In this document: positions 952 through 56,276 of the stretch, one piece after another
Numbering within the stretch: position 1 is the stretch's first letter
How the letters are laid out: every line of letters starts with the position of its first letter
Sequence record: MZ311864.1
Reading direction: 5' to 3' (one strand)
DNA from: Escherichia phage vB_EcoM_LNA4
Length of the DNA stretch: 64,000 nucleotides
Program-made: the position numbers and the translations under genes
Notes under the pieces: generated by a model
Databases searched by the model: none
What the model was told of the DNA's origin: nothing
Seen by the model: only the letters and a program-made list of their open reading frames with translations

Positions 952-3573
952 ATGGCAGATTACAATGATAAGGTCGTTAACGCCGAACTGATCCTCCCAG
1001 AGGGCGGTGCGGGGGAGACCTTTGTTGATGATGGTCAATTCCACACGGAAGACACGACCACCGTCACACTTCTCGGTAATGGTACATCCACTACCCCACT
1101 GAAGGCAACTGTTATTGTAGATCCTGCTTCCGGAAACGCACTTGTAGCTGGCTCTGACGGTCTTTCCGTTGGTGTCAGTACAATCAGTGACAACCTGCTT
1201 GTATTGGCGGGTGGAAAGCTGTATGTTGCTCCTCCTCAGATCGTCATCCCAATTTCTACTAAGACTGGAAACACTCTAGTAGAAGTCACCGACCCAGGTG
1301 AAGAGGGGCTATATGTCCCGCCGGGTGAAAAGGGTGATAAAGGGGATCAGGGGCCGCAAGGTGAACCGGGTGTCGGTATTTACATCCAAGGTATTGTTGG
1401 AGATCCATCCCAACTACCGCCTGCATCAACAATGCAGGAAGGCGATACATACGTTATTGGAACACACTACTGGACTGTTGTAAACCAGCAATGGGTTGAC
1501 CTTGGTGACTTCGCTGGTCCACAGGGACAGGACGGTATCGGCTTGGTAATCAAAGGATCTTTCACCGACACTGCATTCCTTCCGCAAGATGGGAACACCG
1601 AAGGTGATACCTACATCATCCAGGAACAGATGTGGGTTTGGACAGGAAATGAAGACGGCTGGCAACCAGTTGGGCAAGTTGGACCAACAGGCCCACAGGG
1701 TGCTACTGGTGCTACAGGCCCACAGGGTCCTCAAGGTTTAAAAGGCGACAAGGGTGACAAGGGTGACCAAGGCCCTCAAGGTATTCAAGGCCTCACCGGA
1801 GAACAGGGTCCTCAAGGACCTAAAGGTGATAAAGGTGAAGATGCTGCCATTGTTAAACTGAAAGGTACTAAAGCCACTGAAGCTGATCTTCCGGCTTTCG
1901 GTAATGCTGTCGCTGATGCTTGGGTTGTACAGGAAAACAACCACGTATGGGTTTGGACATCAGATGGTGCCTGGGAAGATATTGGCCCTGTACAGGGTCC
2001 GAAGGGTGATCAAGGTGATGTTGGCCCTCAAGGACCACAGGGACAGAAAGGCGACCAAGGTCCAATCGGCCCTGATGGTGCCCCTGGCCCAGCAGGTGCT
2101 GAAGGCCCTCAAGGTATTCAGGGTCCAATCGGCCCTAAAGGTGACAAAGGCGATACAGGTCTAACTGGTCCAGTAGGCCCACAAGGTCCAGTTGGACCAA
2201 AGGGTGACCGTGGCGAAACAGGTTATGGTGCTCGCGTTCTTGGTACTAAAGGCTCAACCGTCGATCTTCCAGCTACAGGAACACCTGGTGACGCATGGAT
2301 CATTGTGCCTAACCTTTACGTCTGGAGTCAGTCTGATGCTCAATGGATCAACGTAGGTCCTTATGTAGGACCGAAGGGTGATAAAGGCGATACTGGGGAT
2401 GTTGGTGCAACAGGCCCTAAAGGTGATACTGGCGCTGATGGGCCGCAGGGTCCACAGGGTGATGTTGGCCCCCAAGGACCAGCAGGTGCTGATGGAGCAC
2501 AAGGACCAGAGGGACCTATGGGTGTTGCTCTTGTTCCGAAAGGTACTGTAGCTAGCCAAGCTGCATTGCCGACAGGTGCATCGCACGGGGATTATTACAC
2601 AACTGATGACACCGGGGAAGGCTTTGCTTTTGATGGTTCCGGTTGGATTAATCTTGGTGTTATGAGAGGTCCTCAAGGGGATCAAGGTCCACAAGGGCTA
2701 CAGGGCGACACGGGGCCACAAGGTCCGAAGGGCGACACAGGACTTACAGGACCAACAGGACCGCAAGGCCCTCAAGGTGAAATGGGTCCTGGTGTAGAGA
2801 TCATCGGCAAACTGGACAACAGTTCTGAACTACCTTCAACAGGTACATTAGGCCAGGGATACCTGATCAATGGTGACTTCTGGGGGTGGACAGGAACAAC
2901 CTACGAAAACCTTGGACCTATTCAAGGACCTCAAGGTGATGTTGGTCCAGCAGGACCAACTGGTCCACAGGGTAGCCAAGGGATTCAGGGTGTTAAGGGA
3001 GACCAAGGTACACTTTGGTTAAACTTTGCACGTAACCCAGGCCCTGCTGATGGTCGTGTTGGGGATTACTTCATTAACAAATCTACACTTGAATATTTCC
3101 AGAAAACCTCTGCTACGGTATGGGCTTCTCTCGGATATATGGGTGGTGGTAACGTTTATGATACCTCCTCTACCACACCACAAGCTCGTACAAGTTCAGG
3201 TTGGGTGGATGTTCCAGTTCTTGAAGCACCTACTGATAGCGGTTATTATGTTCGTGTAAACAGCGCATGGAAGAAGCTTGATCGTTACGATCTTCTTGTT
3301 ACCTCCACGACTGGTGCAATGGACGTTAACGTATCACAAGTGTTCAAAGTCGATGGTACTGCAAACAAGACCATGAGCTTTACAAACCTCCCTGCTGACC
3401 GAGCGATGACAATCGTGATCGTGTTTACTGGTTCCGGTGCGTCACTGACGTGGCCTGGAAACCTTGCATGGTCAAACGGTACGTCAGTAACTCTTGGAAC
3501 AACCCGTACAGTGGTGACTATCCTTTGGGATGGCACAAACCTGACAGGTACTACATCCTTAACGGTTAACTGA
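952..3573 (+). CDS. collagen-like repeat protein (Gly-X-Y tracts), putative fibre/decoration protein
   Basis: 873 aa; long GPQGxxGxKGDxG runs alternating with seven Trp-containing modules; AAGGGG RBS. Confidence 0.85.
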   Translation: MADYNDKVVNAELILPEGGAGETFVDDGQFHTEDTTTVTLLGNGTSTTPLKATVIVDPASGNALVAGSDGLSVGVSTISDNLLVLAGGKLYVAPPQIVIPISTKTGNTLVEVTDPGEEGLYVPPGEKGDKGDQGPQGEPGVGIYIQGIVGDPSQLPPASTMQEGDTYVIGTHYWTVVNQQWVDLGDFAGPQGQDGIGLVIKGSFTDTAFLPQDGNTEGDTYIIQEQMWVWTGNEDGWQPVGQVGPTGPQGATGATGPQGPQGLKGDKGDKGDQGPQGIQGLTGEQGPQGPKGDKGEDAAIVKLKGTKATEADLPAFGNAVADAWVVQENNHVWVWTSDGAWEDIGPVQGPKGDQGDVGPQGPQGQKGDQGPIGPDGAPGPAGAEGPQGIQGPIGPKGDKGDTGLTGPVGPQGPVGPKGDRGETGYGARVLGTKGSTVDLPATGTPGDAWIIVPNLYVWSQSDAQWINVGPYVGPKGDKGDTGDVGATGPKGDTGADGPQGPQGDVGPQGPAGADGAQGPEGPMGVALVPKGTVASQAALPTGASHGDYYTTDDTGEGFAFDGSGWINLGVMRGPQGDQGPQGLQGDTGPQGPKGDTGLTGPTGPQGPQGEMGPGVEIIGKLDNSSELPSTGTLGQGYLINGDFWGWTGTTYENLGPIQGPQGDVGPAGPTGPQGSQGIQGVKGDQGTLWLNFARNPGPADGRVGDYFINKSTLEYFQKTSATVWASLGYMGGGNVYDTSSTTPQARTSSGWVDVPVLEAPTDSGYYVRVNSAWKKLDRYDLLVTSTTGAMDVNVSQVFKVDGTANKTMSFTNLPADRAMTIVIVFTGSGASLTWPGNLAWSNGTSVTLGTTRTVVTILWDGTNLTGTTSLTVN
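1285..3010 (+). repeat. Gly-X-Y codon repeat region inside collagen-like gene
   Basis: Repeated ggtccNcaaggt / aaaggtgataaaggcga units visible at DNA level. Confidence 0.7.
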
Positions 3574-3575
3574 CA

Positions 3576-3597
3576 AAAGGGGCTTCGGCCCCTTCTA
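3576..3597 (+). terminator. GGGGC-UUCG-GCCCC stem-loop, weak terminator or RNA stability element
   Basis: Perfect 5-bp GC stem with UUCG loop after collagen-like gene; short T tract (ttct). Confidence 0.45.
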
Positions 3598-3608
3598 AAG
3601 GAGAACAA

Positions 3609-4253
3609 ATGGTAGTATATTCCTACACACCGATGATCAGGTCTTCTGACGGTAAATACCCAGTATATCTTACTGATTTCAGGGCAGACAACCCTAACGT
3701 CAGCATTGGTACTTGGGTTTACTCAGAGAACATTGCAGAGTTCGGATATTTTCCGGTGATCCCTGTGACACCGCCAACTGGTGATGTTGTCATGGAAGGA
3801 CCTCCTGAATTTAACGACCAAACCCAGCAATGGGAACAGACATGGACATCTCGTGATTTCTTACCTGAAGAAATTGCTGCGAATCTCGAATCTGCAAAGC
3901 AGAGTAAGAAAGCAGAGGCACAGAACGTCCTCTCCCGCGATGTTGATTTAGGTATTCCATACCCGGTTGGTAACGTTGAGTATAAAGTCAGAGTGAAAAG
4001 CTTCGACCTCGCAACCCTTCTTACAATCAAATCGGTGCTGGATTCAGATGGTGACCAAAGCTCTGAAGTATATCCGTTCAGATTCCTTGATGGATATAAA
4101 TCAGACTTTACACACGCTGAAATGAAAGACCTTGTGATTCAGGTTTCTCGTGCTCAGTATGGTTTAATGAAGTCTTACTGGGCGTATCTTGATCAGGTCG
4201 AGCAGGCAACTACTCTACAAAATATCCCTGCACTCCCAGATTCATTCCTGTAA
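3609..4253 (+). CDS. hypothetical structural protein
   Basis: 214 aa ORF with AAGGAG RBS, tightly packed in structural block. Confidence 0.55.
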   Translation: MVVYSYTPMIRSSDGKYPVYLTDFRADNPNVSIGTWVYSENIAEFGYFPVIPVTPPTGDVVMEGPPEFNDQTQQWEQTWTSRDFLPEEIAANLESAKQSKKAEAQNVLSRDVDLGIPYPVGNVEYKVRVKSFDLATLLTIKSVLDSDGDQSSEVYPFRFLDGYKSDFTHAEMKDLVIQVSRAQYGLMKSYWAYLDQVEQATTLQNIPALPDSFL

Positions 4254-4262
4254 GGAGTTGTC

Positions 4263-4814
4263 ATGGTAGCTGCAACAACGGGTGTTGGTGGTATAGTTTA
4301 TGGTAGGACTCTTGTTAGCCAAAAAACTGGCAAGAAAATAGATTTTGATGATATTGGTGTGATGACCAGCAGGGTTAAGTCAGAATGTTATTTCACTGGT
4401 CTTAACCTTGTTATTCAAACAACCCCTGTAAATCTGATAAGTCTTATAAAATCTTTACCGCATACAGGTTCGTTATCCCCATTCTTTAATACAACAACCA
4501 ATAAGTTGAATGTTTTTAATGAGGATGCGACCTGCGACTTCAAATTGAACGTTGCCGGATCTTGGGGAGGCTCTACAGGCAATAGAAGCATGACCGTAGA
4601 TTTCCCACAGACAAACGGCAACTCACTGACAAAGACAAGAGATGCTCAAGTAACCTCTGACATCCTTTCTTTCCCTACCTTCTTCAGTGTTGACAAAGGT
4701 GGTAACATTGCGACTAACGGTACAGACATAACAATAGTCTCTAACGGGTCCAATTTTACGATCACATCGCTGTTGATTATAGCTGAACAAATCATACCGA
4801 CCACAATGGTCTAA
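4263..4814 (+). CDS. hypothetical structural/fibre-like protein
   Basis: 183 aa ORF, RBS AAGGAG, Thr/Asn/Gly-rich. Confidence 0.5.
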   Translation: MVAATTGVGGIVYGRTLVSQKTGKKIDFDDIGVMTSRVKSECYFTGLNLVIQTTPVNLISLIKSLPHTGSLSPFFNTTTNKLNVFNEDATCDFKLNVAGSWGGSTGNRSMTVDFPQTNGNSLTKTRDAQVTSDILSFPTFFSVDKGGNIATNGTDITIVSNGSNFTITSLLIIAEQIIPTTMV

Positions 4815-50096: not shown

Positions 50097-51376
50097 CAAT
50101 CCTCCTTAGTTTCTTCTTCCAGGTAGATTTGTTCCAAGATTTCACCTGCTGCACCAATTACCAGAATATCTGGTGCGCCCACTGGCTTGTCCACACCCGT
50201 CAACACCTCATAACGACAGCAACGGCACTTCTGCTGGTTGTAGTCGTAAGGAACACTTACAACGTCAGCCGGGTTAACAGCTACCTCGATAAGGCTGTTA
50301 CCAACAAAGCCGCCTGCGTATTCCAGAGAGGCAATGTGCAGACCTTGGCTACAGGAGACACTTGGATTATCTTCAACCATGTTTCGTGGCATAGAAATAA
50401 TCTGGCCTTTGTAGTTTGGAACCTTCTTGGTGCGGGTATCGCGAGGACCATCAGCAGTGTTGGTGATCTTCTTGTACGCCTTAACGTCACCATTTTCAAG
50501 GATCTCAAGGTCGTTGTGCTGAATAAAATCATACAGCATCTTCACAGAGGCATAAGACGGGTTGTGCATCAGCTTCTGCATGAACTTCACATAACGCTCA
50601 TCGAAAGTATCATTGTTGATATCGTTGAGGATACGTTTTGCAAGAGTGGTCTCTTGCTTCTGCCCGTGCCAGTACAGAACACCATCCAATAGCTTCAGGT
50701 CTGGACCGAGATCAACGACCTTCTCTGCCTTCGCTTCCTTCCCTGCTTCGATCAGGGCGATAGCCCCATCAATGTCGCCCTCAATCAACAGCAGACCGAC
50801 ATCCGGGAAGATATCGTTGTCACGGTTAATCGTGTGCTGAGTACCATCAGGCATAGAGATGCAGACGTTACCGGGAGTCATGATGACCACAGGGTCTTTC
50901 TTCTCGGTGACCTCTTCGTCGAAATATGTTTTCGGTGCAGACTCTTCAACAACCACACTCACAGGGACCTTGTAAGGCTCCGGCAATAGTGTGACCGTTG
51001 CTTCGATATGCAGGTCGGTTACTTCGAAAGTGACTTCCCAGCGTTTTCCCTGCTTACCAAGATCCTTAACAACACCGTAGTTTACCCCCCGGTCACCCTG
51101 GGCGTGGTCAATAATCTTAGCATTCTTTTTGCCCTTTGCAAAGTCACGGGCCTCACCACGACTTCCGAAGAACATAGAAGACCGAGCAGGAACGGCTTCA
51201 GAGGTGAAGCTCATGTCAACTTCTGGGGGCTTAGAAGCCCCTTGACTATCTTTTGGTACAACCATCCAACGGCCTTCTGCCAGCACCGCTGGTGATACAC
51301 CACGGTCTACAACCTTCATACCGTTGAGGGATGCGTACTCACGCGCCTTACTGCGGGATTCAAAAAGATTACTCAT
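50096..51376 (-). CDS. rIIB: rIIB-like protein (tentative)
   Basis: 426 aa ORF translationally coupled (ATGA) downstream of the rIIA-like gene; assignment by synteny only. Confidence 0.4.
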   Translation of the reverse strand: MSNLFESRSKAREYASLNGMKVVDRGVSPAVLAEGRWMVVPKDSQGASKPPEVDMSFTSEAVPARSSMFFGSRGEARDFAKGKKNAKIIDHAQGDRGVNYGVVKDLGKQGKRWEVTFEVTDLHIEATVTLLPEPYKVPVSVVVEESAPKTYFDEEVTEKKDPVVIMTPGNVCISMPDGTQHTINRDNDIFPDVGLLLIEGDIDGAIALIEAGKEAKAEKVVDLGPDLKLLDGVLYWHGQKQETTLAKRILNDINNDTFDERYVKFMQKLMHNPSYASVKMLYDFIQHNDLEILENGDVKAYKKITNTADGPRDTRTKKVPNYKGQIISMPRNMVEDNPSVSCSQGLHIASLEYAGGFVGNSLIEVAVNPADVVSVPYDYNQQKCRCCRYEVLTGVDKPVGAPDILVIGAAGEILEQIYLEEETKED

Positions 51377-53367
51377 TTATTTTCTCCTTTGCTATCAATA
51401 AGTTGTCTATACTCAACCATCTCTGGTGAGTTAAAGTACTTCAGGTCAATGTATTTCAGAAGAGGATATTTTGCCTTTTTAGCAGCAAGCAAATTCTTCC
51501 CGATTCGCATACGTGCCTTGACGATGCGCTCCGCTTTTCTTTCAATATCATAGTAACCCATGATGTTAGAGAGGGCTGAAGACATATTGACCTTTTGTAC
51601 ATATTCAGGGTCTTCTTTCACTCCAATCCCAAAGACAGCAAGACAACTTACCATGTACCGATAATCAGTTGTCTTAGTAAATTGTTTGAGATGATACTCC
51701 ATAAGATTTGTTTTAGCAAGCTCATAAAGGTCATCACGGTCAATGATTCGCGTTTCTTCTGGCAACCAACCTGAACGATTCAATGGAACGATGTACAGTT
51801 TTCCTGTTACACCAAGTTCTTTCAGGAAGGTTTCAGACTGTGTATAGCGATGAGTCAGCGAGGAAACAGACCCCAGTGGACAATCACCTTTCACCTGACC
51901 ACCGCTGTAAATCATAGCTGCGTCAATGTCATCAAACTGAGCACGAGAAATCCTTGTTTTGTGGACAGACCCATCTTGTTCAATAATCCAAACAGCGTGA
52001 CCAGGCTCATACAGGCTGTAGCCACCATACTTTCTATCACCCTTCTCTACAGGCCGTTTTTCAAGCTCTGATAACTTAAAGACCATTCCCTCGAAGAAGG
52101 GATCTTTCAGAATATCTAAGGCTTCATAGCGTTCAGTAACAAATACACGCATATTTCTTTTTTCAGACAACCACTGACACTTAGACCGGATGCACCTATG
52201 ATCATCATCATAAACCAAAGGGTATCCGTTCATAAGCTCAGAATAGCCGTAATTTTGTTCTTTTAGCCGTTTGCTACCTTTTCCACCAAAGGTGATGCAG
52301 TCTTCTATTCTGAATGTTCCAAAATGCTCTTTGAACTTGTCAGCGATGAAACCAGAACCAAATCGGTTAGAGAAATATCCGCCGACACGGTTCATATAAT
52401 CCAAAACTTCTTTTAGGGTCGTGAATTGTTGAAGTTCTTTAACCACCTGTTCCCCACGCTTTTCAATTGCCTGGGTAACAAATCTCTCAAGGCGGTCACG
52501 AAATCCGCGATCATTCTTACCTTCAATAGTCCATTCACGCCCAGGGTTTACGTCACAATCCCCAATAGGAATGGAAACCATCATCATAGGCCATTCTTTG
52601 TTAGTGGACAGGAAATTAGACAGATAAGGTTGTTGCCCCATAACCACAACGCTGTCGGAGTTTTTGGATACAGACCCATACATTTCCAGCAGCCAACCAC
52701 TATCTTTATCTTCATAACGGTACTGCACCGGGTAGGTACGGTCGTTAAGTTCAGACGTGACGAATGGGTCATTGATCTCAAACGGAAACTTAGCGTAACG
52801 CAGGCATTTTACAATGGCCTGACGATATTTGTAAGTCTCAGAAGGATCGACGTTGAATTTGATTTCAACACCATTTTCTTCTTCTGTTTGTGATTCGTGC
52901 AGAGGAACAACCTCCGGGATACCCTCGTTTTTGTGGACAGAGTAAACAGTTTTAATTCCGTCCTTAATCGACGTGACCGTAAACATATCCGTCACAGTAA
53001 ACGGGGCTTTAGACCCGATACCTTTTGCGCCAATCAGATCGTTAGAATCACGCTTGGTGGAAGACCCCAACATCATAAAGGTCTGGGTGACCATATTGAA
53101 ATCCATACCAAGCCCTGAATCACGCACAGAATACCACGGTTCGAGATCGGTTGGAGAGTGGATGACAATCGCTTTCTCACGGCACCCAGCCTCCGTGTGT
53201 GAGTCTACAGCGTTGAACAGCGGTTCACGCACCGCAGCCAGAACTTTATCATTGTAAATACCGTCGATCAGGATGCTGAAAGTCTCAGCATTGATTGCGA
53301 TCCCTGCCTGATAGCGCTGTACGCTACCCGTTACCTGGACCTTCTCTTCGGCACGTTGGATTATCAT
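51373..53367 (-). CDS. rIIA: rIIA-like protein with GHKL-type ATPase domain
   Basis: 664 aa; N-box AVREPLFNAVDSH, G1 VRDSGLGMD, G2 GAKGIGSKA; no TOPRIM; followed by coupled second gene. Confidence 0.55.
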   Translation of the reverse strand: MIIQRAEEKVQVTGSVQRYQAGIAINAETFSILIDGIYNDKVLAAVREPLFNAVDSHTEAGCREKAIVIHSPTDLEPWYSVRDSGLGMDFNMVTQTFMMLGSSTKRDSNDLIGAKGIGSKAPFTVTDMFTVTSIKDGIKTVYSVHKNEGIPEVVPLHESQTEEENGVEIKFNVDPSETYKYRQAIVKCLRYAKFPFEINDPFVTSELNDRTYPVQYRYEDKDSGWLLEMYGSVSKNSDSVVVMGQQPYLSNFLSTNKEWPMMMVSIPIGDCDVNPGREWTIEGKNDRGFRDRLERFVTQAIEKRGEQVVKELQQFTTLKEVLDYMNRVGGYFSNRFGSGFIADKFKEHFGTFRIEDCITFGGKGSKRLKEQNYGYSELMNGYPLVYDDDHRCIRSKCQWLSEKRNMRVFVTERYEALDILKDPFFEGMVFKLSELEKRPVEKGDRKYGGYSLYEPGHAVWIIEQDGSVHKTRISRAQFDDIDAAMIYSGGQVKGDCPLGSVSSLTHRYTQSETFLKELGVTGKLYIVPLNRSGWLPEETRIIDRDDLYELAKTNLMEYHLKQFTKTTDYRYMVSCLAVFGIGVKEDPEYVQKVNMSSALSNIMGYYDIERKAERIVKARMRIGKNLLAAKKAKYPLLKYIDLKYFNSPEMVEYRQLIDSKGENK

Positions 53368-53378
53368 CCGTTTCTCCT

Positions 53379-53552
53379 CTATTTGCAGTTATTTATGGGG
53401 TTTCTTTTGCGAGCCTTCCGCACGATGTAGATACCTGCCAGCAGGCCAAGAGCGTAAGCTCCAGACACTTGCTCCCAGAACATCCATTGAGTTAAAGACA
53501 GTATCACAAGATATGGGATAATGCAAACACAAAGTAGCAAAATACTCTTCAT
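53379..53552 (-). CDS. small membrane protein
   Basis: ATG at 53552 with AGGGAG RBS; hydrophobic. Confidence 0.35.
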   Translation of the reverse strand: MKSILLLCVCIIPYLVILSLTQWMFWEQVSGAYALGLLAGIYIVRKARKRNPINNCK

Positions 53553-53556
53553 ACGT

Positions 53557-54087
53557 TCAGGCTCCCTGGGATTCAGGCTTTTCTTTGTAGAAAATGTGGT
53601 TATCAATCCTTACAGTGCGAATCATAACTTTCGTCCAGTATGGCTTAACCTTCTTTGAGTGATAATACGTAGAACCCTTAGTGATGTCAAGGGCATCGTA
53701 AACAATTTTATTGGTCGTGTGGACTTTGATCAGAAATGAGGCGAACTCCTTTGCCTTTTCCCAGCGTTCCTTTTCATACACTTTGAAAGAAGAACTTCCG
53801 GATGTCCAGGAGAATTGTCCAGACTGATAAACGATCTTCTTCACGGTGTGTGGGAACTTATCGTTGTCCTTGCGGTTCAGGGTAACAAAGGCGATAGACA
53901 TCATCCCAGAGTCGCTCTCACCACGGGCTTCACGATACATATTACATGCCAAGATATTTACCGCTGAGTCATCTTTTTTGCAGAGATGAATCACCTTGGG
54001 CTTCTTTGCGTTGTCTTTAGCCAGTACAGGCGTGGTGGCTAGAGAAAAAGCACAGGCGGTTGCCAGAATAAGGTTCTTTACTTTCAA
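53557..54087 (-). CDS. secreted SleB/CwlJ-like cell wall hydrolase (candidate endolysin)
   Basis: TTG start at 54087 with GGAG RBS; signal peptide KVKNLILATACAFSLATTPVLA; motif NMYREARGE...MMSIAFVTLNR...YQSGQFSWTSG. Confidence 0.65.
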   Translation of the reverse strand: MKVKNLILATACAFSLATTPVLAKDNAKKPKVIHLCKKDDSAVNILACNMYREARGESDSGMMSIAFVTLNRKDNDKFPHTVKKIVYQSGQFSWTSGSSSFKVYEKERWEKAKEFASFLIKVHTTNKIVYDALDITKGSTYYHSKKVKPYWTKVMIRTVRIDNHIFYKEKPESQGA

Positions 54088-54101
54088 ATTACGCTCCAAA
54101 T

Positions 54102-54124
54102 TAAAAAGCCCCAGGGTAGGGGCT
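54102..54124 (-). terminator. rho-independent terminator (minus strand)
   Basis: AGCCCC-tacccu-GGGGCU followed by UUUUU on the minus-strand transcript. Confidence 0.6.
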
Positions 54125-54129
54125 ATCAA

Positions 54130-54486
54130 TTAACGGCGGGAGATGTCGCCTGAGACAGTTTTTACATTGCCTTCTATTGTTTTTGCAAGTACATCTCCGG
54201 ACACAGTGGTAACGTCACCAAGTGCGCCGTTTTCGACATGAACATCACCAGAGGTGGTTTTGATATTACCAGCTACTGTGCCGTATACGTTGACATCGCC
54301 AGATACCGTGCTGACCCCTTTAACGTCGCCGTTAATCACGACAGTGATGTTCTTTTCTTGTGTGGTGTGGATGATCTGTCCGTTAAGGATAATGTTATCC
54401 CCGTCAGACGTGATATGAACATCCCCGGCCACAATACTACCATTGAGAATCTTGCCGTTAATGGTAATAACATTAGAGTTTACCAT
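54130..54486 (-). CDS. bactofilin-like beta-helix repeat protein
   Basis: ATG at 54486 with AGAGGAG RBS; periodic SGDV.V.G / V.G.V repeats across about 110 aa. Confidence 0.45.
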   Translation of the reverse strand: MVNSNVITINGKILNGSIVAGDVHITSDGDNIILNGQIIHTTQEKNITVVINGDVKGVSTVSGDVNVYGTVAGNIKTTSGDVHVENGALGDVTTVSGDVLAKTIEGNVKTVSGDISRR

Positions 54487-54514
54487 ATTTTCTCCTCTTA
54501 ATAAATCCTTAAGC

Positions 54515-54694: not shown

Positions 54695-54848
54695 GAATGA
54701 TCCTCGCTTTTTGAACTGAGAAGACAAACGTACCATGTTCCTCTACGTATTGTCTACCCATTTCTTCATCTTCGAAGATAAGAGTATCAACCTCAGACTT
54801 CACTGGCCTGTCCTTAACAGGCCGTGAGGTGCATACGATTAGCGCCAT
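54663..54848 (-). CDS. hypothetical small protein
   Basis: ATG overlaps RNA ligase stop (TAATG coupling). Confidence 0.35.
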   Translation of the reverse strand: MALIVCTSRPVKDRPVKSEVDTLIFEDEEMGRQYVEEHGTFVFSVQKARIIHAADTTEVRS

Positions 54849-55894
54849 TACAGAGGACTCTCGTTCAGCTTCTGCATGTACCAACCACGAGATTTGTTGC
54901 TGATGAACTTCGCAACATCCTTCATGGTCAGGGAGTTAGCTTCCAGAACATCGCCTTCTTCCTTGTTGATGTCACGGCTAACCCAGGCAATGAACTCACC
55001 GATCTTAGATTGGTCGAGACCAACTTCACCAAGAGCCTGCTCAAGGCGGTTCTCAGTCACAGCGTACTCAACGAACTCACGCATGTTCTGGAGCCGTACC
55101 GGGTCAACCTCTGCCAGGGTTTTAACCTTGGATACAGAGTGCTTCTCACCCTTCACTTTGAACCACAGGCCGGAGTCTTTAGCCAGTTCTGGTTGCAGCG
55201 GGGACCAAACGATACCCTCACCTACACCCTCAACACCAAAGTGTTTACCAACCGGGCAGGATGCTTCCACCTGCATCGTCAGGGTTGTCAGATCGTTCTG
55301 TACCTGCTCAGGTTCATTGAACGGAATATTCACGGACCAGAAACCAAAGTCAAGAACACTGAAGATCCGCTCTTGTGGCAGGCCAATGCCGTACTGGAAG
55401 TTTGGTGGCATCCAGTTCAGGGCGTTGCCCTCTTCATTGCGACCAACAGCAACACGGAAGATCGTGAAGAAAGGTTCAACCTCACTTACAGCCACACCTT
55501 TCTGGATACCACGACCAGCCCACTCACCAGCGATCTCAACCGGGAAGGAGAACGGTGTGCCGTTGCATTCGCATAGGTATTTAACCTGCTCCAGAAGTTC
55601 TTTGGTATCTTTACGCACCATGAACGCAGCAAAGCCGTTGTTGTCGTCACCGACTTGGACGATACGTTCTTTGGACTGGAAAACAACCTCATCTTCAGAG
55701 TGGAAGACAATGCTGCCATTGGTCCCGTGGATCTTAACCGTACCAATGTACGGGATCAGGTACTGATCCGGCGCAACAACCTTACGCTTGATGTTACCAT
55801 TCTCATCAATCCCGTCAAAGGTCAGACGATCATGGATTGCCTTAATCACTTGGCGGAACTGGTGAGTGCTTGGGTATTTAATAGGTTTAGTCAA
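54848..55894 (-). CDS. ATP-dependent RNA ligase, Rnl2 family
   Basis: Motif I KIHGTN, motif FGEWAGRGIQKGV, motif V WFKVKGEKH; TTG start at 55894 with AAGGAG RBS 7 nt upstream. Confidence 0.75.
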   Translation of the reverse strand: MTKPIKYPSTHQFRQVIKAIHDRLTFDGIDENGNIKRKVVAPDQYLIPYIGTVKIHGTNGSIVFHSEDEVVFQSKERIVQVGDDNNGFAAFMVRKDTKELLEQVKYLCECNGTPFSFPVEIAGEWAGRGIQKGVAVSEVEPFFTIFRVAVGRNEEGNALNWMPPNFQYGIGLPQERIFSVLDFGFWSVNIPFNEPEQVQNDLTTLTMQVEASCPVGKHFGVEGVGEGIVWSPLQPELAKDSGLWFKVKGEKHSVSKVKTLAEVDPVRLQNMREFVEYAVTENRLEQALGEVGLDQSKIGEFIAWVSRDINKEEGDVLEANSLTMKDVAKFISNKSRGWYMQKLNESPL

Positions 55895-56276
55895 CTTTAG
55901 ACTCCTTTTTAGGTGCAATCGCTTGTGTGATCAGGTTGTCGATGTCGTCAACCCACTCTGGGGTGCGTAGGAACAGCATCAGATTCATTGTCTGAAGCAA
56001 ATACGCACTGTTTTGTGTGATCGCATAGATATCGTAACCATCTACCAGCAGTCGTTCAACTGTCGATGTACGGATGGGCTTATTATCAAAGCCACGGCCT
56101 TGATGATCACGACCATCTAAAAAACCACAAATACAACGAGGCCAGACCTCTACGTGGGGACGGGCATTAACCACCACCCCAGCAAAGAGCTTACCACCGA
56201 TGAATTTTGGTTCAGGAACAGTCTGTGCCAGACGAATTGGATCACCAACACCAACCTCAGATTTACTCATTGTCAT
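55887..56276 (-). CDS. hypothetical protein
   Basis: ATG at 56276 with GAGGGG RBS. Confidence 0.4.
   Translation of the reverse strand: MTMSKSEVGVGDPIRLAQTVPEPKFIGGKLFAGVVVNARPHVEVWPRCICGFLDGRDHQGRGFDNKPIRTSTVERLLVDGYDIYAITQNSAYLLQTMNLMLFLRTPEWVDDIDNLITQAIAPKKESKVD

Follow-up and report, generated by a model that had tools for sequence, protein, structure and literature searches.

We analysed a 64,000-nt stretch of the genome of Escherichia phage vB_EcoM_LNA4 (MZ311864.1; hereafter the window, whose numbering is used throughout) and, within it, a gene for a 118-residue repeat protein that is followed by a gene for a cell wall hydrolase of the SleB/CwlJ type. An earlier sequence-only reading of this DNA had described the repeat protein as bactofilin-like and pointed to its place beside the hydrolase gene. 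Sequence and profile comparisons rather place it in PHROG 3163, apparently a distinct β-solenoid family at roughly equal distance from Bactofilin and Toastrack, for which membership of neither can be demonstrated. The two genes are best read as neighbours that one branch of a phage subfamily has inherited side by side, not as a functional pair. As to function, we tentatively favour, with somewhat less than even confidence, a composite reading in which the solenoid would be an early cytoplasmic establishment factor, the hairpin between the genes would attenuate the hydrolase and the two genes would be mere neighbours.

The repeat protein is a predicted β-solenoid

The open reading frame (ORF) of the repeat protein runs from ATG 54486 to TAA 54130 on the minus strand. 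Some GenBank records start it at a TTG that gives 134 residues, but the 118-residue form is favoured because a GAGGAG Shine-Dalgarno sequence lies 5 nt before the ATG. The protein is dominated by Val (19 residues, 16%), Gly (16, 14%), Ile (14, 12%), Thr (13, 11%) and Asn (12, 10%), with a single Tyr; Cys, Phe, Trp and Pro are absent. The motif SGDV is present three times (residues 62, 79 and 96) and SGDI once (residue 112). Self-similarity computed with BLOSUM has its maxima at offsets of 16, 17 and 33 residues (z = 3.2, 3.1 and 4.1 against 2000 shuffles), and the periodicity is therefore real. The description of the protein as built almost entirely of such repeats is nevertheless a slight overstatement, as the SGD repeat is restricted to residues ~48-118 (the C-terminal ~60%) and residues 1-47 follow a separate conserved pattern, with the family consensus ING..Y.G..I.I.NG.V.IDG. 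The conserved residues of the solenoid are those of its turn motifs, i.e. Gly and a stacked T-x-S-G-D ladder. Neither a signal peptide nor a transmembrane (TM) segment is present in the protein. A DNA mimic of the Ocr/ArdA type was considered and dropped in view of the net charge, which is -4 for the window protein and -3 for the family median.

Structure prediction with AF2, on an alignment of 90 homologues, gave a model with 14 short strands and no helix (mean predicted local distance difference test, pLDDT, 80.2; predicted template modelling score, pTM, 0.70). The first strand begins at residue 6, and the last rung stops 3 residues short of the C-terminus. The model thus predicts a small soluble single-chain right-handed β-solenoid, in agreement with the β-helix proposed earlier. 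The fold-comparison list comprised the Hbp and Hap autotransporter passengers, a Ca2+-dependent antifreeze protein, MinC C-terminal domains and a 'putative pectinase', and further several 'putative adhesin' structures, the CAP C-terminal domain, Ag43 and bactofilins; left-handed hexapeptide-repeat helices aligned only at ~10 Å. Foldseek found no match in the PDB at E <= 0.001, β-solenoids being low-complexity in 3Di, and a profile of the family alignment found nothing under E = 0.09 among PDB sequences. The fold search favours no single family.

PHROG 3163 as a family apparently distinct from Bactofilin and Toastrack

The 118-residue protein matches PHROG 3163, whose function is unassigned, at 5.9e-29. 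An exhaustive profile search returned 9890 cluster representatives at E <= 1e-3, including 2536 at E <= 1e-10. Nearly all members are stand-alone proteins of 110-145 residues, with C-terminal tails of mostly 1-6 residues. Hydrophobic segments of the TM or signal type occur in 3 members out of 250, for which reason general membrane anchoring of the family was dropped as a candidate. The motif SGD[VI]xC is found in 148 of 250 members, at least twice in 73 of them, where the Cys would stack on adjacent rungs; a metal-binding Cys ladder as the essential function of the family was dropped, as the window protein is devoid of Cys.

In Pfam, the best match of the 118-residue protein is Bactofilin (PF04519), with E = 0.044 and 14.5 bits for a gathering score of 27.9, over a single stretch (residues 54-107); FapA follows at E = 0.52, and nothing further was found. 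NCBIfam gave no bactofilin match at E <= 1 and no meaningful match, and neither the query nor ten longer family members contain a Pfam domain at E <= 0.01. Member scans against Pfam, 221 in total (90 + 131 sequences, with the query in both sets), yielded at E <= 0.01, bit scores not being compared with cutoffs, 13 matches to DUF4097 (Toastrack; best E = 6.7e-7), 10 to Bactofilin (best E = 2.5e-5) and a few to FapA and TamB. The 118-residue protein stays below the curated cutoff of every Pfam model, and the members give sporadic matches only.

We also aligned the family profile with bactofilin references using hhalign. The probabilities were 1.9% for BacA of Caulobacter crescentus (residues 45-132) and 1.2% for TtBac of Thermus thermophilus (residues 13-107), both taken from PDB alignments, and 11% over 25 columns for a 20-sequence PF04519 alignment of low diversity. 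Two hallmarks stand out in the bactofilin alignment, namely an N-terminus of the MFSK type and a C-terminal 'GAFFQG' with an invariant Phe, and neither is found in the 118-residue protein. The predicted fold does have, as bactofilins do, a right-handed β-helical core of about six windings; one of the bactofilin structures, 6RIA, is that of a non-polymerising F105R mutant according to its entry title. With a score well under the Pfam cutoff, the marginal hhalign probabilities and neither the Phe motif nor tails, the bactofilin-like identity given to the protein in the sequence-only reading does not hold.

Links to Toastrack proteins are similarly scattered. One close homologue has a precomputed PF13349 match and three homologues are named YvlB-like by JGI, but DUF4097 does not match the 118-residue protein at E <= 1. 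A Toastrack-like consensus of our own retrieved no Toastrack chain from the PDB.

The downstream gene encodes a predicted exported hydrolase

The second gene runs from TTG 54087 to TGA 53557 and codes for 176 residues. Pfam Hydrolase_2 (PF07486) matches the protein over the full model (1-100; E = 7.7e-21, 75 bits for a gathering score of 27). There is also a match to phrog_938, annotated 'endolysin', and the presence of a SleB/CwlJ-type hydrolase directly downstream of the repeat gene is thereby confirmed. With phmmer, the SleB catalytic domains 4F55 and 4FET were found ('NMYREARGES...VTLNR' aligned with 'AVYGESRGEP...VILNR'), and the glutamates of the E-x-R-G-E catalytic motif are kept, the first of which is the catalytic one in published SleB structures. 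The TIGR02869 SleB equivalog model gave 46.5 bits, for a cutoff of 236.5, over model positions 82-201 only. By these alignments, the protein is a phage version reduced to the catalytic domain and not an orthologue of spore SleB. Its homologues are found in 1161 phage records, including those of rV5-, phi92-, T5- and PaP1-like phages.

The position of the start codon bears on the export of the protein. Annotators have used an in-frame TTG further upstream (54099), and the ATG annotated in Av-05 sits within the hairpin loop described below. In an alignment of five genera (the window, GAP31, PVP-SE1, Av-05 and KB57), TTG-AAA at 54087 is invariant, while TTG 54099 is lost in Av-05, where it is CTG; this supports TTG 54087, 6 nt after GGAG 54097-54094, as the start, as had been proposed. 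The resulting N-terminus, MKVK-NLILATACAFSLATTPVLA/KD, is laid out in n, h and c regions like a Sec signal peptide; positions -3 to -1 are V-L-A and the maximum Kyte-Doolittle hydropathy is 2.28 over 11 residues, so that the signal peptide expected from this start is also predicted here. The gene thus probably codes for a Sec-exported muralytic enzyme of the SleB/CwlJ type. A signal peptide has been reported for its Certrevirus homologue CB7_83, which is toxic on expression in E. coli, and a gene for a SleB-like hydrolase is present in all Vequintavirinae genera (PMC7344957). Other endolysins are encoded elsewhere in these genomes, i.e. gp146 of PVP-SE1, which has been characterised experimentally, and gp89 of rV5, which is predicted; the hydrolase is therefore an additional muralytic enzyme.

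Two IMG/VR loci of the Klebsiella phage KNP2 type (L022, 4400-5523, and L025) have a different arrangement. A 200-residue ORF without Pfam match begins at the usual TTG of the hydrolase after the terminator, and the hydrolase frame resumes downstream in another frame with a differing signal-like segment, IKYLTILIALLTTLSTGPVIA; no ATG, GTG or TTG precedes 'MACNMYREARGES'. The gene may be disrupted, or the arrangement may be due to an insertion or to an intron that carries a homing-type ORF.

A conserved hairpin separates the two genes

A terminator scan identified the hairpin AGCCCC-TACCCT-GGGGCT (54124-54107) five bases after TAA 54130, followed by TTTTTAATTT. It consists of a 6-bp stem with 5 G-C pairs and a 6-nt loop, and the local fold has an energy of -18.7 kcal/mol (z = -2.65). 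Across the five-genus alignment there is no variation in stem, T-run, GGAG or TTG-AAA start, and the loop differs in every genus; the stems being invariant, the alignment provides no covariation evidence. The hairpin and its U-run have the features of a putative Rho-independent terminator, in line with the hairpin terminator noted earlier between the two genes. It most likely terminates or attenuates the transcript coming from the solenoid gene, in which case only read-through would yield the hydrolase, which is exported and toxic, and its level would be low.

The solenoid and the hydrolase are probably mere neighbours by descent

The two genes are adjacent in Seunavirus (the window, 4MG, GAP31 and PVP-SE1), Mydovirus (KB57), Avunavirus (Av-05) and Erwinia phages of the Henunavirus type. 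In Vequintavirus (MaxTheCat) and Certrevirus (CR9), an unrelated 126-residue protein is encoded upstream of the hydrolase, and the upstream gene is also unrelated in a phi92-like phage. Among 72 IMG/VR loci with a solenoid gene, a SleB-like ORF lies within 4 kb in 10, all at >= 52% identity (jackhmmer), and the other 62 have no SleB-like gene within that distance. Similarly, no hydrolase gene accompanies the homologues of Acinetobacter phage Bestia, Stx phage TL-2011b and jumbo phage GAP32, or those on conjugative plasmids. As the adjacency is bound to one lineage, as only the hydrolase has an export signal and as a conserved terminator stands between the genes, the functional pairing implied by the earlier description is not borne out.

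Homologues recur among early genes of phages and on conjugative plasmids

All-against-all clustering of the neighbouring ORFs in 89 loci revealed no conserved partner gene beyond lineage synteny, except DNA ligase. In 21 loci, an ATP-dependent DNA ligase is encoded no more than ~2.3 kb away from the solenoid gene. At least four arrangements occur, in which the ligase gene follows directly, follows after ~2 kb or precedes the solenoid gene by ~1.2 kb, separated from it by two genes (ligase ORFs of 338-472 residues as called, the 338-residue one being clipped by the locus edge). In Acinetobacter phage-plasmids, genes for a primase and a DnaB-like helicase adjoin the homologue. In Stx phage TL-2011b, the homologue is a lone opposite-strand gene between the terminase and portal genes, i.e. 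a moron in a prophage. In addition, an adenylosuccinate-synthetase-like gene (Pfam Adenylsucc_synt) adjoins the solenoid gene or lies one gene off in several uncultivated phage contigs, which might belong to PurZ-type 2-aminoadenine (Z-genome) phages. A profile scan of contigs with a 22-sequence alignment gave 12 loci of one narrow pattern and says little on the distribution in bacteria.

A tblastn search showed family homologues on 145 plasmid records, 106 of them conjugative. They include plasmids with IncX4 and IncI2 backbones, which are common carriers of mcr-1. The IncX4 protein WP_000844303.1 (124 residues; named 'tail-associated lysozyme' by PGAP) matches the family profile with 99.5% probability (E = 1.9e-22), and in the IncX4 plasmid pBS512_33 the gene is 1.1 kb upstream of taxA-taxC. 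In this 7.2-kb locus (L102), the solenoid gene occupies 3345-3719 on the plus strand, and the only match to YATCCTG/Y, the nic consensus of MOBP/RP4-type origins of transfer (oriTs), is at 4724-4731 on the minus strand, where it adjoins an inverted repeat (4732-4772), ~95 bp upstream of taxA. If this match is nic, the transferred strand (T-strand) runs toward the gene, and the solenoid gene is thus the third ORF into the recipient, with the T-strand as template. The IncX4 homologue would then lie in the leading region, on the first-transferred side and ~1 kb from the presumed nic site. An orientation with the T-strand as template is the rule reported for anti-defence and establishment genes of leading regions (PMC11541004).

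The gene also occurs on IncI2 plasmids, together with hicAB and the same 97-residue neighbour downstream, and lies there on the non-relaxase side of the pair formed by mobC and the relaxase gene. The solenoid gene is part of a small cassette shared between plasmids (L102, 2994-4027; L106, 4506-5527; L103, 3088-3842), with a hypothetical protein of ~95-109 residues encoded upstream. The nearly identical 97-residue hypothetical protein is encoded downstream in IncX4 and in the IncI2 plasmid HKE9, not in pRHB09-C13_3, and hicA/hicB come next at ~1-4 kb. No homologue of the two flanking proteins occurs in the window or among the fetched phage loci.

Proposed function and rival explanations

The homologues recur among early, replication and nucleotide-metabolism genes of unrelated phages and phage-plasmids, and in the IncX4 leading region, which is why we infer an early cytoplasmic role. 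The solenoid would act in the cytoplasm soon after the element has entered the cell, offering a rigid surface for binding. It might sequester or occupy a host protein, for host takeover or anti-defence, or it might self-associate. A bolder form of this proposal, which we consider on balance unlikely, is that PHROG 3163 is an unrecognised and very widespread class of minimal β-solenoid 'establishment' proteins, expressed first on cell entry by virulent phages, prophages, phage-plasmids and IncX4/IncI2 plasmids. Such proteins would neutralise a host barrier that is conserved, be it an immune system or a checkpoint of the envelope or of division, through the rigid surface laddered with T-x-SGD, possibly as a self-stacking polymer.

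Several points weigh against the early cytoplasmic role or against treating the two genes as mere neighbours. The early timing is deduced from gene content alone, and sigma-70-like promoter matches are not enriched around the locus (5 found in 53-56 kb for 3.7 expected). The association with early genes and with a leading region points to no target or activity. PADLOC, searched for defence and anti-defence models, gave a best match of E = 0.075 only. The nic site is assigned from the consensus of MOBP/RP4-type oriTs, of which 0.72 matches are expected by chance per 7.2-kb locus; the informative part of the assignment is the position of the match. The IncX4 and IncI2 backbones are each highly clonal and thus amount to about two independent observations, and the family is absent from the supplements of the leading-region study (PMC11541004). 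The sequence may also be compatible with a bactofilin-like self-polymerisation of the solenoid. Finally, the stable adjacency with the hydrolase across four genera could reflect a lineage-specific functional link.

Among the rivals, the one that survives best, although it is improbable, is that of a minimal stand-alone Toastrack (DUF4097-like) docking platform, which would assemble or perturb sub-membrane envelope-stress complexes of the Psp/Lia type during infection. The T-x-SGD[IV] rung motif points in that direction, as do three JGI product names ('DUF4097 and DUF4098 domain-containing protein YvlB'), the single precomputed PF13349 match and the rank of DUF4097 as the commonest sub-threshold match in the member scans. 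Two homologues carry an N-terminal TM anchor and a strongly basic stretch, which would make theirs a cytoplasmic membrane-proximal domain, and both rIIA/rIIB and the exported hydrolase concern the envelope. However, such an anchor is found in only 2 members out of 250, and the window protein itself lacks a DUF4097 match. Moreover, no PspC, LiaI/LiaF-TM, HAAS or two-component genes were found as neighbours in the window or in the 72 viral, 7 metagenome and plasmid loci.

Little credence can be given to a bactofilin-type polymer scaffold that cooperates with the adjacent secreted hydrolase, by analogy with bacterial pairs of bactofilins and cell wall hydrolases. Bactofilin is the top match in Pfam, albeit a non-significant one, UniRef calls one homologue a 'polymer-forming cytoskeletal protein', and the adjacency is kept in four genera. 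The profile scores and missing hallmarks reported above argue against it, including the absence of any Phe and of disordered tails. In addition, the solenoid would be cytoplasmic and the hydrolase exported, with a conserved terminator between their genes. The adjacency is also missing in Vequintavirus, Certrevirus and all distant loci, and the plasmid homologues have no hydrolase at all.

Even fainter is the prospect of a mimic of the MinC C-terminal domain that binds MinD or FtsZ and blocks host division early in infection. MinC domains do figure in the fold-comparison list, but percent identity between Gly/Val-rich solenoids is inflated by composition, and MinC_C was matched neither by the query at E <= 1 nor in the 221 member scans at E <= 0.01. 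A virion or tail-associated β-helix, as suggested by the RefSeq/PGAP product names of GAP31_004, pEp_SNUABM_01 and the IncX4/IncI2 proteins, is scarcely credible, since the gene sits outside the morphogenesis module, among those for rIIA/rIIB, RNA ligase and a phosphatase, since a single-chain right-handed protein of 118 residues differs from the trimeric intertwined helix of the gp5 type, since conjugative plasmids, which make no virions, carry homologues and since the names are inconsistent between records, as is typical of annotation noise. The probability that remains after the early cytoplasmic establishment factor and these four rivals falls to something else.

Locus, gene order and neighbouring genes

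The window is from a phage of the Seunavirus type (Vequintavirinae), and its 44-64 kb part is transcribed wholly from the minus strand. Over a 1.6-kb region with both genes, identity amounts to 92-93% with Escherichia phage 4MG, Cronobacter phage GAP31 and Enterobacter phage EC152 and to 82-84% with PVP-SE1 and SSE121. The records of these relatives already annotate both genes, as 'hypothetical protein' (in RefSeq, 'tail protein') and as 'cell wall hydrolase SleB' or 'endolysin'. The two genes are thus orthologues of annotated genes in a known, PVP-SE1-like phage group. Similarly, the secreted SleB-like hydrolase of Vequintavirinae and a two-TM holin candidate downstream have both been discussed in print and are not new. 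Neither gene has a paralogue in the rest of the window. The features of the locus, and those of the distant loci mentioned above, are collected in Table 1.

Table 1. Features of the solenoid-hydrolase locus in the window and of genes near solenoid homologues in other loci
Feature	Position	Strand	Basis or remark
Shine-Dalgarno GAGGAG of solenoid gene	54492..54497	minus	read from sequence; 5 nt upstream of ATG 54486
Coding sequence, 118-residue predicted right-handed β-solenoid protein, PHROG 3163 family	54130..54486	minus	four T-x-SGD[VI] rungs, C-terminal half
Terminator-like hairpin and T-run between the two genes	54098..54124 (hairpin 54124-54107)	minus	terminator scan, fold, conservation
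GGAG ribosome-binding site of hydrolase gene	54094..54097	minus	sequence; 6 nt before TTG 54087; same in five genera
Coding sequence, 176-residue SleB/CwlJ-type hydrolase (Hydrolase_2)	53557..54087	minus	Pfam PF07486, phmmer, phrog_938
Predicted Sec-type signal peptide of hydrolase, residues 1-23	54087-54019	minus	n/h/c layout, hydropathy
Coding sequence, 57-residue two-TM protein, holin-like candidate	53379..53552	minus	ORF, phrog_24442, hydropathy
rIIA homologue, directly downstream of the 57-residue ORF; rIIB after	51373..53367	minus	annotation of GAP31, Av-05, MaxTheCat; Pfam HATPase_c_3
RNA ligase 2 gene, two small ORFs upstream of solenoid gene	54848-55918	minus	
DNA ligase genes near solenoid homologues	loci L005, L030-L041, L031, L050-L052, L054, L055, L058, L061, L062, L076, L081, L082, L087		
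Adenylsucc_synt genes near solenoid homologues	loci L014-L017 (L014 2919-3998), L031 1963-3102, L054 1915-3108		

The 57-residue ORF begins with ATG 53552, 5 nt past the hydrolase stop codon. The encoded protein contains two hydrophobic stretches, is basic at its C-terminus (RKARKRNPINNCK) and is matched by phrog_24442 at E = 9.4e-44. The ORF is kept in GAP31, PVP-SE1 and KB57 and is missing in Av-05, where rIIA directly succeeds the hydrolase gene; the succession of a SleB-like hydrolase gene and rIIA is the more widely conserved adjacency. In Certrevirus CB7, a small two-TM ORF (65 residues) that overlaps the end of the SleB-like gene has been proposed to code for a class II holin (PMC7344957). 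By analogy, the 57-residue protein is a holin-like candidate, and it is a neighbour of the solenoid, not a part of it. With the hydrolase, it might form an accessory module for peptidoglycan remodelling or lysis, as already noted for Vequintavirinae. In the 3' part of the hydrolase gene (53662-53690, minus strand), a sigma-70-like promoter sequence, TTGACA-17-TATTAT (11 of 12 positions), is present ~110 nt upstream of the 57-residue ORF and rIIA. GAP31 and PVP-SE1 have kept this sequence, and Av-05 and KB57 have a degenerate form of it, but its location inside a coding sequence means that this conservation is no independent evidence.

Opposite the solenoid gene, a long open frame (54238-54501, plus strand) clusters across 44 loci. 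This frame does not represent a second gene but results from the composition of the repeats, and it could mislead ORF callers. The product names under the 1.6-kb locus also differ between GenBank and RefSeq records. The solenoid orthologue is a 'tail protein' in the RefSeq record of GAP31 and an 'ADP-ribosyltransferase' in Salmonella phage 40, the plasmid homologues are named 'tail-associated lysozyme' or 'phage tail protein', a 'baseplate hub subunit and tail lysozyme' overlaps the match in pEp_SNUABM_01, and 'tail sheath protein' and 'integrase' appear in further records. None of these automatic names is supported by our analyses.

Significance and comparison with known systems

The locus itself is mostly ordinary, and its remaining interest lies in the widespread solenoid family and its distribution among early and leading-region genes. 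A first practical outcome is a correction, as the tests made here lend no support to the database labels 'bactofilin', 'polymer-forming cytoskeletal', 'tail protein' and 'tail-associated lysozyme'. The second is a lead, not a result, for anti-defence screening, namely a very large family (thousands of sequence clusters) without a Pfam model, which recurs where mobile elements keep the genes that they express first. If its members are anti-defence or host-takeover factors, they would be relevant to the host range of therapeutic phages and to plasmid spread. We found nothing on the PHROG 3163 family in the literature on phage bactofilins, phage Toastrack proteins, Vequintavirinae transcriptomes and the IncX4 leading region.

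Compared with bactofilins (PF04519; BacA, 2N3D; T. thermophilus bactofilin, 6RIA; Helicobacter pylori CcmA), the 118-residue protein shows no significant sequence or profile similarity and lacks the terminal Phe interface, the membrane-targeting N-terminus and the disordered tails. Conversely, only the solenoid family has the T-x-SGD ladder and the N-terminal half with its own consensus. The carriers also differ, as the solenoid family is found on phages and plasmids and bactofilins are encoded in chromosomal morphogenesis loci. Toastrack proteins (DUF4097/DUF2154/DUF2807; LiaG, the LiaF C-terminus and YvlB; 4QRK, 3LYC, 4YGU and 3PET) are much longer than the stand-alone solenoid, which is neither fused to nor encoded beside PspC or LiaF-TM and gives no DUF4097 match at E <= 1.

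The hydrolase shares with spore SleB and CwlJ (PF07486; 4F55 and 4FET) a homologous catalytic domain, in which the Y-x-E-x-R-G-E and LNR motifs align. Where SleB has an N-terminal peptidoglycan-binding domain, the phage protein carries a signal peptide and a short linker, and its gene belongs to a phage with a Gram-negative host. A closer parallel within the same subfamily is that of CB7_83/CB7_82 and CR3_087 (PMC7344957), where a hydrolase with a signal peptide is likewise accompanied by a small two-TM ORF; the likeness of the small ORFs is by description, and homology applies to the hydrolase only. Unlike the window, Certrevirus has no β-solenoid gene upstream and no rIIA/rIIB downstream.

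Lastly, the solenoid can be compared with the establishment and anti-defence proteins of plasmid leading regions (ArdA, PsiB, SSB and anti-CRISPRs; PMC11541004). It has no sequence similarity to any known anti-defence protein, and its charge is -3 to -4. The likeness is rather one of setting: the IncX4 homologue is small, would be encoded on the leading side with the T-strand as template and, as leading-region genes do, sits in a run of small same-strand ORFs, beside hicAB.

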